NCBI GenBank assembly: GCA_964497535.1
Contig: CAZCCG010000001.1
Coordinates: 291,425-355,424, forward strand
Origin: an uncultured Gammaproteobacteria bacterium
Lineage (GTDB): Bacteria > Patescibacteriota > Microgenomatia > Levybacterales > UBA12049
DNA: 64,000 nt
Direction of reading: 5' to 3'
Made by a program: the position numbers and the translations under genes. Below are positions 29,874 through 30,998 of the stretch, piece after piece; position 1 is the stretch's first letter, and every line of letters begins with the position of its first letter. The notes below the pieces were generated by a model. It made no database searches. It saw nothing but the letters and a program-made list of their open reading frames with translations, and was not told where the DNA came from.

Positions 29874-30998
29874 ATGGAACCAACAGTGACTCCCGATCCT
29901 GCAGCAAATGCGGCTCCTCAATCTATCAACCAACAAACGGCGGCGAGCGATCAGCTCAGGCGGTTGGGAGAAAAGGTTGAGAAAACAGTCCTTCCTGATG
30001 ATCTCAAAAGAAATCTTACTGAGCGTATACAGCGATTGGCATTGCTGAGAGCCTCTTCAGGATTCTTGAGCTCAAATTACATTGTTGAATATGAAAGTAC
30101 TGCAGCATATGTCAATTGGGTTACTAATTTACCCTGGGCTATTCGGACAAAGGATATATTAGACTTAAATCATGCAAAAACAGTACTCGATCAGAATCAT
30201 TATGGCTTGAATGTTGTAAAAAACAGAATTTTAGAATATTTGGCAGCTATTATTTTGAATTTACAAAATAAAGATTCAGACCGTGTCTTACGAGCTCCAA
30301 TTCTGTGTCTGGTAGGATTGGCAGGTACAGGAAAAACCACCCTTGCCATTTCAATAGCAGAGGCCTTGGGAAGAAAATTCGAACGTATTCCTTTTGGAGG
30401 AATGGGTGATTCTCGAGCACTGAGAGGACAATCCCGGGCTTTTCCGGATGCGGAGCCAGGGCTTGTTATTAAAAAGCTTGCTCATGCGGGGGCAAAAAAT
30501 TGCGTAATACTTCTTGATGAACTTGATAGAGTATCAGAATCAGCTCGGGCAGATATTATGGGTGTTTTGATTGAGCTCTTGGATCCAGAACAAAATAAGG
30601 CATTTACAGATCATTATATTGATTATCCATTCGATTTATCTGAAGTTTTATTTATTGCTACATCCAACAATACCAGTAATATTGCCACAGCTGTTTTGGA
30701 TCGCCTGGAGATTATCCAAATGCCTTCCTATTCGGATGAAGAAAAAAATACCATTGCGAAGAGTTATCTATTCCCCAAGATTTTGAAAAATACCGGTCTT
30801 ACCCCGGCTCAGTTGGTAATTGACGATAACGTATGGGACAATGTTATACGACCGTTGGGATTTGACTCCGGAATCAGGAGTCTTGAGAGAACAATCGGAG
30901 GCGTATGCCGGAGAGTTGCGCGATATATTGTAGAAGGTAAAACTCCGGCGATTCGTATCACCAACGAAAATGTAAAAGAATTTTTACCAATGTATTAA
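29874..30998 (+). CDS. Lon-family AAA+ ATPase module alone. It lacks both the N-terminal substrate-binding domain and the C-terminal S16 protease domain.
   Basis: It is colinear with the Lon ATPase segment: HYGLNVVKNRILEYLA, Walker A GLAGTGKTT, Walker B ILLDELDRV, ELLDPEQNKAFTDHYIDYPFDLSEVLFIATSN, LDRLEIIQMPSYSDEEK, FDSGIRSLER. It stops at the exact point where the Lon protease domain would begin. RNase J starts 3 nt later. Confidence 0.8.
   Translation: MEPTVTPDPAANAAPQSINQQTAASDQLRRLGEKVEKTVLPDDLKRNLTERIQRLALLRASSGFLSSNYIVEYESTAAYVNWVTNLPWAIRTKDILDLNHAKTVLDQNHYGLNVVKNRILEYLAAIILNLQNKDSDRVLRAPILCLVGLAGTGKTTLAISIAEALGRKFERIPFGGMGDSRALRGQSRAFPDAEPGLVIKKLAHAGAKNCVILLDELDRVSESARADIMGVLIELLDPEQNKAFTDHYIDYPFDLSEVLFIATSNNTSNIATAVLDRLEIIQMPSYSDEEKNTIAKSYLFPKILKNTGLTPAQLVIDDNVWDNVIRPLGFDSGIRSLERTIGGVCRRVARYIVEGKTPAIRITNENVKEFLPMY

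Follow-up and report, generated by a model that had tools for sequence, protein, structure and literature searches.

A conserved Lon-type AAA+ ATPase without a protease domain in Microgenomates bacteria

We analysed a stretch of 64,000 nucleotides (hereafter the window) from contig CAZCCG010000001.1 of GenBank assembly GCA_964497535.1, whose GTDB lineage lies in the Microgenomatia of the Patescibacteriota, and we focus here on one of its genes, a complete reading frame for a Lon-type AAA+ ATPase that has no protease domain. We refer to the gene and its product as Lon-AAA. The Lon-AAA family is real and conserved and, as far as the literature can be searched, undescribed. Its members keep the residues of the ATP site without exception, and the loops that line the substrate pore of the LonA proteases have been replaced. 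With moderate confidence, we regard Lon-AAA as a stand-alone ATPase derived from LonA that remodels or holds client proteins, as a chaperone or regulator, and not as a component of a protease.

The open reading frame (ORF) starts with ATG and ends with TAA. A first-pass annotation, made from the sequence alone, had read it as a Lon ATPase module running from an HYGL motif to the sensor region FDSGIRSLER. All the motifs it named were found (NHYGL at residues 108-112, Walker A GLAGTGKTT at 148-156, Walker B ILLDEL and GFDSGIRSLER at 329-339), and Pfam, NCBIfam and PDB searches agree with that reading. Pfam matched AAA at residues 144-282 (8e-19) and Lon_lid at 305-356 (7e-12), which supplies the profile confirmation of the ATPase that the annotation had asked for; neither the LON N-terminal domain (PF02190) nor Lon_C was matched. 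NCBIfam TIGR00763 'lon' gave an E-value of 9.6e-98 over model positions 249-568 of 795 only, with a score of 328.6 bits that lies below the curated cut-off of 608, and PRK10787 was matched over model positions 245-580 of 784, with a score of 267 against a cut-off of 891. The top PDB sequence match was B. subtilis Lon 3m6a (1.4e-77; query 26-371 on chain 8-338), and the E. coli Lon fragment 6n2i matched query 23-371 on chain 6-339. Overall, residues 23-371 align with the B. subtilis, E. coli, Meiothermus, Yersinia and human Lons, from the last helices of the N-terminal region to the end of the ATPase.

The product therefore consists of a three-helix bundle, an alpha/beta domain and a Lon lid, and it ends where ATPase and protease meet in Lon, as the annotation had claimed and as the end of the TIGR00763 match at position 568 bears out. 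The further claim that both the protease and the N-terminal domain are absent needs one amendment: the S16 protease domain and the LON N-terminal substrate-binding domain are missing, and the final portion of the LonA N-region, the three-helix bundle adjoining the AAA+ module, is retained. Downstream, the junction with the RNase J gene (rnj) reads TAA-AT-ATG, the ATG at 31001 lying 2 nt past the stop codon. A frameshifted or decayed protease following the ATPase was rejected, since a six-frame search of the window for S16 came back empty and rnj begins at once, which upholds the earlier argument that no room is left for one. An identity as an anti-phage defence ATPase was also dropped: the PADLOC defence-system models gave no significant full-length match to the protein, and what they did match was weak, covered part of the length and was of a generic AAA kind (best DolB, 2e-8, 31.7 bits).

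The annotation had left it to be checked whether the short form is conserved in relatives, and it is. Among 5.8 billion proteins, the best 120 homologues are 360-442 amino acids long (median 377) and 65-81% identical to Lon-AAA; they carry AAA and Lon_lid, and Lon_C is found in none. The named ones come from Levybacteria, Microgenomates or Patescibacteria and are currently labelled 'AAA family ATPase' (NCBI) or 'ATP-dependent Lon protease' (JGI). In the genomes scanned, one per GTDB species, at least 325 family loci were confirmed, of which the best 80 were used for the locus analyses below; named genomes among these 80 include Levy-, Gottesman-, Woese-, Shapiro- and Amesbacteria. Many of the locus records (L010, L011, L013, L025, L057 and others) bear the title 'uncultured Gammaproteobacteria bacterium', 'Lysobacterales' or 'Bathyarchaeia archaeon', labels that look like placeholders or errors because the gene content and synteny are Patescibacteria-like. 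When representatives at 50% identity were scored with the family profile, every single-module protein that outscored the full-length Lons was without S16. Full-length LonA proteins started at about 320 bits and 40-45% identity, the two nearest nameable ones being ordinary Firmicutes Lons. Two more distant protease-less representatives bear Dojkabacteria names. One Dojkabacteria member has a C-terminal extension of 194 residues, which we considered as a degenerate S16 domain and rejected, the extension being S/N-rich and of low complexity, with no hidden Markov model signal even with filters off. The long N-terminal extensions of representatives P0124, P0134, P0144 and P0149 matched no Pfam domain.

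The separation from LonA is equally clear in phylogeny. A neighbour-joining tree (Kimura distances, 100 bootstraps) was built from 29 family members and 45 LonA modules, and it placed the family and LonA on the two sides of a bipartition in 100 of 100 bootstraps, with a long stem. The mean distance between the groups was 1.21, compared with 0.61 among the family members and 0.78 among the LonA modules. Most likely, the N-terminal substrate-binding domain and the S16 domain were both lost in an ancestor of the Microgenomates, and the Dojkabacteria probably share this ancestral loss. The gene is ancient, has been conserved vertically, and has been under strong purifying selection since the domains were lost.

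We took the roles of individual residues from the cryo-electron microscopy study of Y. pestis Lon (PMC7239648) and aligned 209 family members to the family profile; the residue counts given for the 209 members are columns of this alignment, since strict regular-expression patterns under-counted divergent members. Seven residues of the ATP site (K154, T155, D215, E216, N265, R277 and R335) were each present in 209 of the 209. The last of these, the sensor-2 arginine (nucleotides 30876-30878), lies within the clade-specific segment LGFDSGIRSLER, and the surrounding region reads LGFDSGIR in the family as opposed to YTrEaGVR in LonA. An AlphaFold2 model built with 72 family sequences (predicted local distance difference test score, pLDDT, 84; predicted template modelling score 0.76) has a disordered tail followed by the three-helix bundle, the alpha/beta domain and the lid, and it places the LGF of LGFDSGIR at the sensor-2 helix rather than in a loop that protrudes. 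With this model, the top PDB matches in Foldseek were all LonA or LONP1 chains, and superposition on the E. coli AAA+ fragment 6n2i gave template modelling (TM) scores of 0.82/0.90 and a root-mean-square deviation of 2.2 Å. In the bundle, Y79 and W82 (LonA Y294 and W297) are largely kept.

The invariant arginine finger acts only across a subunit interface. Crystals of the E. coli fragment in 6n2i (residues 235-584, obtained by limited proteolysis) show it packed into a hexamer of open helical form (PMC6722904), and since its boundaries are practically those of Lon-AAA, ring assembly of the Lon-AAA protein is plausible. Such a ring would be expected to hydrolyse ATP.

The pore presents a different picture. 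Pore loop 1 of Lon-AAA reads R-G-Q-S-R-A-F-P-D-A-E-P-G, where LonA has R-G-H-R-R-T-Y-[IV]-G-x-[ML]-P-G. Serine at position 187 replaces LonA R395 in 207 of 209 members, D or E at 192 replaces Gly400 in 208, and E194 is found in all 209. At position 190, the place of the LonA pore tyrosine Tyr398, the 209 members have mostly F (131), followed by H (32), Y (14), L (9), R (9), M (5) and S (3), and position 191 is P or A. The family pattern is thus S-R-A-[F/H/...]-[P/A]-D-A-E, and the net charge of the loop is 0 in the family versus +3 in LonA. In pore loop 2, the GDP of LonA has become (A)DIMG. A third change is found at the tip of the three-helix bundle, where the family has an insertion: the column of position 69 is gapped in 45 of 45 aligned LonA sequences, and the LonA consensus shows a gap of 8 columns. 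In LonA the loop of the three-helix bundle carries Met284 at the entrance of the pore (PMC7239648). The [YF]-E motif of the tip is retained in deep relatives.

To these we can compare 70 single-module Lons that do bear S16, in which R395, Y398 and the hydrophobic residue at 399 are each present in 70 of 70 and G400 in 67 of 70. By contrast, the deeper protease-less relatives have intact ATP-site motifs and no aromatic residue in pore loop 1 (for example RGRSRGEIDAEPG, LGHSKANPDAEPG and RGTTSTDANGFPG). Taken together, the deep relatives and the 70-Lon control indicate that where the protease is lost the canonical threading paddle is lost too, with ATP hydrolysis still under absolute constraint.

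Because the truncation is conserved, the clade is separate and the residues of the ATP site are invariant, 'stand-alone chaperone or regulator', as the annotation had put it, is still the best reading. The part about an orphan conserved ATPase stands as observed, and the function itself can be stated only conditionally. We infer that the Lon-AAA protein would assemble a Lon-like ring and burn ATP, and that it would not thread proteins into a degradation chamber. The ATP-driven movements of the ring would instead serve to remodel certain clients or to hold them, perhaps clients that have basic segments, making it a chaperone, holdase, remodeller or ATP-dependent regulator. The window also encodes a DnaK system and two Hsp100/Clp-type ATPases, so other machines take care of general disaggregation. 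There is a precedent in human LONP1, whose chaperone-like anti-aggregation activity is reported to need ATPase activity and not protease activity (PMC8368198; see also PMC7801493). The likeness lies in this need for ATP hydrolysis without proteolysis; LONP1, unlike Lon-AAA, is a full-length protease: its N domain is present, its pore loops are canonical and its S16 domain is active.

Several points weigh against this interpretation. In the core family, the pore position is still F or Y in 145 of 209 members (about 69%), and for this reason some residual threading ability may remain. In LonA the protease ring supplies much of the stability of the hexamer, and closed rings of the Lon-AAA protein by itself are a prediction. 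Our S16 scans span the window and the flanks of the gene, so a partner may lie elsewhere in the genome. Finally, the idea of basic clients, which are possible ones, draws on the charge of the pore loops and on nothing else.

The best surviving alternative, which we consider unlikely, is a two-component Lon, in which the ATPase unfolds and threads substrates and docks onto a separately encoded peptidase, either a stand-alone S16 protein or a compartmental protease like ClpP or HslV. The fully intact ATPase site and the aromatic residue kept in most core members are compatible with it, and in yeast Lon the ATPase region and the protease region are reported to complement each other when made as separate polypeptides. 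Besides, the protein has a conserved C-terminal end with an aromatic last residue in many members (W, Y or F in 91 of the 165 caught by the C-terminal pattern), which could be a peptidase-docking tail. The motif ...FLPx[W/Y] at this end aligns with an F/Y of the LonA interdomain linker, so the aromatic residue may be a leftover of that linker, and it is not conserved in deep members.

The first-pass annotation had suggested an S16 partner in trans, and we found nothing that speaks for one. We took the C-terminal domains of 27 full-length Lons to make an S16 profile, which had no hit in six frames of the whole window (best E = 2.6), in six frames of the 80 relatives' loci (±10 kb around the gene, 1.32 Mb), or in 5 further loci searched over ±10 kb. 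Two-part AAA+ proteases are commonly operonic. This test of neighbouring peptidases searched for S16 only; the gene tables show pnp, rnj, ftsK and uracil-DNA glycosylase as neighbours, and the Dojkabacteria member is adjoined by an unrelated C39-like peptidase gene. The Tyr-hydrophobic-Gly loop with its tandem arginines, invariant in the 70 protease-bearing Lons, is replaced here, and the deeper members have no pore aromatic at all. Other AAA+ motors that feed proteases also retain a pore loop of the Tyr-hydrophobic-Gly type. The surrender of the paddle, together with the lack of a linked S16 gene in the window and the 85 relatives' loci, disfavours a two-component Lon.

A second alternative arises from the neighbourhood of the gene. 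In the window and in relatives, Lon-AAA lies in a co-directional housekeeping array of nusA, infB, an unassigned gene, rpsO, pnp, Lon-AAA, rnj and ftsK. The gene for polynucleotide phosphorylase (PNPase), pnp, is upstream on the same strand in 67 of 69 testable loci (adjacent in 53), and rnj is downstream in 64 of 71 (adjacent in 40). The annotation had stressed the tight spacing to RNase J, which turns out to be a local feature: relatives have 3-118 nt between the two genes (three loci read in detail) or a gene in between. In many Woese- and Gottesman-type genomes, this gene encodes a family-4 uracil-DNA glycosylase (loci L041, L050, L059-L061, L068, L072, L076, L079 and L082-L084; about 200 amino acids, identified by eye from GE[AG]PG...PFVG.AG). 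With this identification, the gene of about 600 bp between ATPase and rnj was dropped as a candidate partner. Neither pnp nor rnj was found near the gene of the Dojkabacteria member; in a second deep member, 4.5 kb separate the gene from pnp, and rnj is not next to it. A simple promoter and terminator scan picked up a single strong promoter-like site, ahead of rpsO, and nothing of note between pnp, the ATPase gene and rnj, with counts not above those in shuffled controls.

Two features of this array deserve a separate description. The C-terminal ~65 residues of PNPase (29613-29813; ...HKPHPLSMQFRRERSEELRKKSGRMRSTSGSRPRFRKPY) follow its S1 domain and are basic and probably disordered. In 70 relatives the tail has a median length of 65 amino acids, with 16.5 K+R versus 8 D+E. 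Levybacteria-type tails share the motif (E/D)HPL[STA]xQ[FL][RK]RE, often with RKxxY at the end; Woesebacteria-type tails have GPHFPTSR[YF], and Gottesmanbacteria-type tails are short and have no motif. The unassigned gene between infB and rpsO is an ORF of 384 amino acids (25995-27149, +) with no Pfam match and an extremely Q/P-rich C-terminal half, and relatives hold an ORF of similar size, again with no recorded Pfam match, at the same position.

It is conceivable, although quite improbable in our judgement, that the ATPase is an accessory of RNA decay, a partner of PNPase and/or RNase J that engages, for instance, the basic PNPase tail as a degradosome-like remodelling subunit. The frequency with which pnp and rnj flank the gene favours this idea, as do the absence of a strong promoter or terminator between the three genes in the window, the basic tail with its short conserved motif in Levybacteria-type genomes, and the acidic pore loops of the ATPase. 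Against it, the nusA-infB-...-rpsO-pnp ... rnj-ftsK stretch as a whole is a conserved housekeeping array, and for this reason adjacency to pnp and rnj may simply be inherited. Moreover, an unrelated glycosylase gene splits the ATPase from rnj in many genomes, the Dojkabacteria member and the other deep member stand apart from these genes, the Gottesmanbacteria-type genomes retain the ATPase although their PNPase tails are short and motif-less, and the scan did not exceed its shuffled controls. We read the neighbourhood as inherited synteny in which adjacency is not obligatory, and we do not take it to prove a functional link to pnp or rnj. Co-transcription of Lon-AAA with its neighbours is probable.

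A more specific and still more doubtful conjecture is that a Lon-derived ring with an acidic, largely non-aromatic pore (D/E192, E194) grips basic tails and not unfolded chains, the basic C-terminal extension of PNPase being a candidate client, and thereby controls RNA-decay enzymes or other basic RNA-binding proteins in these minimal-genome bacteria. In charge, this would be the mirror image of katanin and spastin, whose basic pores grip the acidic tails of tubulin. If true, a ring that grips basic tails would be a new functional type of AAA+ machine.

The weakest explanation is that the gene has no function, being either a lon pseudogene truncated in recent times or an artefact of assembly or gene calling. 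It can point to the score below the cut-off for full-length Lon and has a negligible probability, because hundreds of genomes have a protein with this length and these boundaries (55-81% identity), an identical protein is present in independent assemblies, the catalytic residues are invariant, no S16 remnant was seen in any frame, and the next gene begins 2 nt after the stop; this conservation and the separate, ancient clade rule out the recent pseudogenising truncation that the annotation had named as the finding that would overturn it.

How does Lon-AAA compare with the systems already known? Judged by its sequence, it is a descendant of the LonA motor and would work like it. The LonA proteins (E. 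coli, Y. pestis and B. subtilis Lon, human LONP1) share about 40-45% identity with it over the whole ORF and a TM score of about 0.8, along with Walker A and B, sensor-1, the arginine finger, sensor-2, E447/Y456 and Y294/W297. On four counts, namely S16, the N domain, the model cut-off and the pore loop, Lon-AAA falls outside the Lon proteases. It differs from LonA in having neither the LON N-terminal domain nor the S16 Ser-Lys domain, in the replacement of pore loops 1 and 2, in the 8-residue insertion at the bundle tip, in the LGFDSGIR segment, and in forming a clade of its own. The E. coli fragment 235-584 has nearly the same boundaries as the ORF; it is a laboratory fragment of a full-length protease with a canonical pore, whereas Lon-AAA is a natural, conserved product with a changed one. 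Meiothermus LonC (PMC3391209) is, like Lon-AAA, a natural Lon relative that has given up one of two activities. LonC is reported to have kept the protease and lost ATP-powered unfolding, so that Lon-AAA, which kept the motor, is its mirror image.

ClpX and HslU of the HCLR clade are also single-module AAA+ ring ATPases with no fused protease. Their pore loop is still of the aromatic-hydrophobic-Gly type, dedicated elements dock them onto ClpP or HslV, and ClpX also has remodelling roles that are independent of the protease. In Lon-AAA we found neither such a pore loop nor an S16 partner gene within ±10 kb, and we recognised no docking loop, although the C-terminal end could be a docking tail. 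Finally, what defines Lon is an unfolding motor fused to a protease. The Lon subfamilies A, B, C and BA all hold the ATPase and the protease domain in one chain (PMC9569914), and in the searchable literature we found no description of a protease-less Lon in Candidate Phyla Radiation bacteria (Patescibacteria), Saccharibacteria or Microgenomates. The coordinates of the gene, its parts and its two neighbours are given in Table 1.

Table 1. Lon-AAA, its parts and the flanking genes in the window (aa, residues of the Lon-AAA protein; AF2, AlphaFold2).
Feature	Position	Strand	Evidence or remarks
Protease-less Lon-type AAA+ ATPase gene, complete, 374 aa + TAA stop	29874..30998	+	ORF list, Pfam AAA + Lon_lid, TIGR00763, PDB Lon matches
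N-terminal tail aa 1-22, variable, probably disordered	29874..29939	+	Residues 1-16 pLDDT <50; length and sequence unconserved in relatives
Three-helix bundle aa 23-90 = LonA NTD3H / C-terminal part of HI(CC)	29940..30143	+	AF2 helices 16-37, 42-62, 67-85; alignment to E. coli, B. subtilis Lon
Extended bundle tip aa 61-74, SSGFLSSNYIVEYE, clade-specific	30054..30095	+	8-residue insertion vs LonA, at loop bearing pore-entrance Met284 in LonA
AAA+ large (alpha/beta) subdomain aa 91-285	30144..30728	+	Pfam AAA 144-282; AF2, Foldseek match to LonA AAA+ module
Walker A GLAGTGKTT; K154, T155 invariant 209/209	30315..30341	+
Remodelled pore loop 1 RGQSRAFPDAEPG	30423..30461	+	LonA counterpart RGHRRTY[IV]G.[ML]PG
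Walker B VILLDE; D215, E216 invariant 209/209	30504..30521	+
Remodelled pore loop 2 DRVSESARADIMGV	30525..30566	+	LonA counterpart DK...rGDP..A; M229 invariant; I228 replaces LonA Pro
Pre-sensor-1 beta-hairpin region	30588..30623	+	E239 (= E447), Y248 (= Y456) largely kept; D250 in place of E458
Sensor-1 Asn265 (= LonA N473), 209/209	30666..30668	+
Trans-acting arginine finger Arg277 (= LonA R484), 209/209	30702..30704	+
Lon-type lid / small alpha subdomain aa 286-371	30729..30986	+	Pfam Lon_lid 305-356
Conserved C-terminal end NVKEFLPMY	30969..30995	+	Protein stops 2-3 residues past [FY][LM]
Polynucleotide phosphorylase (pnp), basic C-terminal tail ~65 aa	27528..29813	+	Pfam; synteny; tail analysis
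RNase J (rnj)	31001..32722	+	Pfam; synteny

Some further observations were made along the way. The top scorers of 1000-1800 amino acids in the search of representatives were set aside as unrelated multi-module Lons, ranked high by their summed scores. Proteins of this kind, which are not in the window (P0121, P0123, P0125-P0130, P0132, P0135, P0138 and others, about 890-1800 amino acids), have two or three tandem Lon-type AAA+ modules and then a single S16 domain; in P0121, AAA modules at 76-346, 363-618 and 641-912 precede S16 at 913-1111. Two named ones come from Candidatus Dependentiae/Babeliales, and the pore Tyr and some ATP-site residues are only partly conserved. They look like 'stacked-ring' Lon proteases.

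In the window, the two Hsp100/Clp-type double-AAA ATPases (10965-13706 and 16677-19199, both +; 913 and 840 amino acids) lie near hrcA-grpE-dnaK-dnaJ (3772-7981). In the 840-residue protein, Pfam saw the first AAA module through weak P-loop matches only, and in relatives a related ClpB_D2-small protein is encoded upstream of nusA. A predicted membrane protein of 827 amino acids with no Pfam match (8445-10928, +) is encoded between a small membrane protein and the first of these ATPases. By eye (DSGID / HGT / GTS), we also recognised two large secreted subtilisin-like proteins, which together with neighbouring large secreted proteins occupy 13722-16448 (+), 57195-58757 (-), 54994-57198 (-) and 54315-55052 (-); these proteins share Cys-rich C-terminal ends, such as ...CSKLQKSLNLCRLKCCRIDNLSICK and ...CTQGNKKIQICSLKCIKR.

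For annotation, the consequence is direct: counting Lon-AAA as a 'Lon protease' credits these organisms with a proteolysis that the gene cannot provide. The gene is conserved and unnamed, and the uncultivated, ultra-small bacteria that carry it form a large group whose equipment for proteostasis is minimal. More generally, an ancient and widespread lineage has kept the Lon motor alone, with a perfect ATP site and a rewritten substrate pore, and so offers a natural experiment on the Lon motor without proteolysis that bears on the debated chaperone function of Lon.

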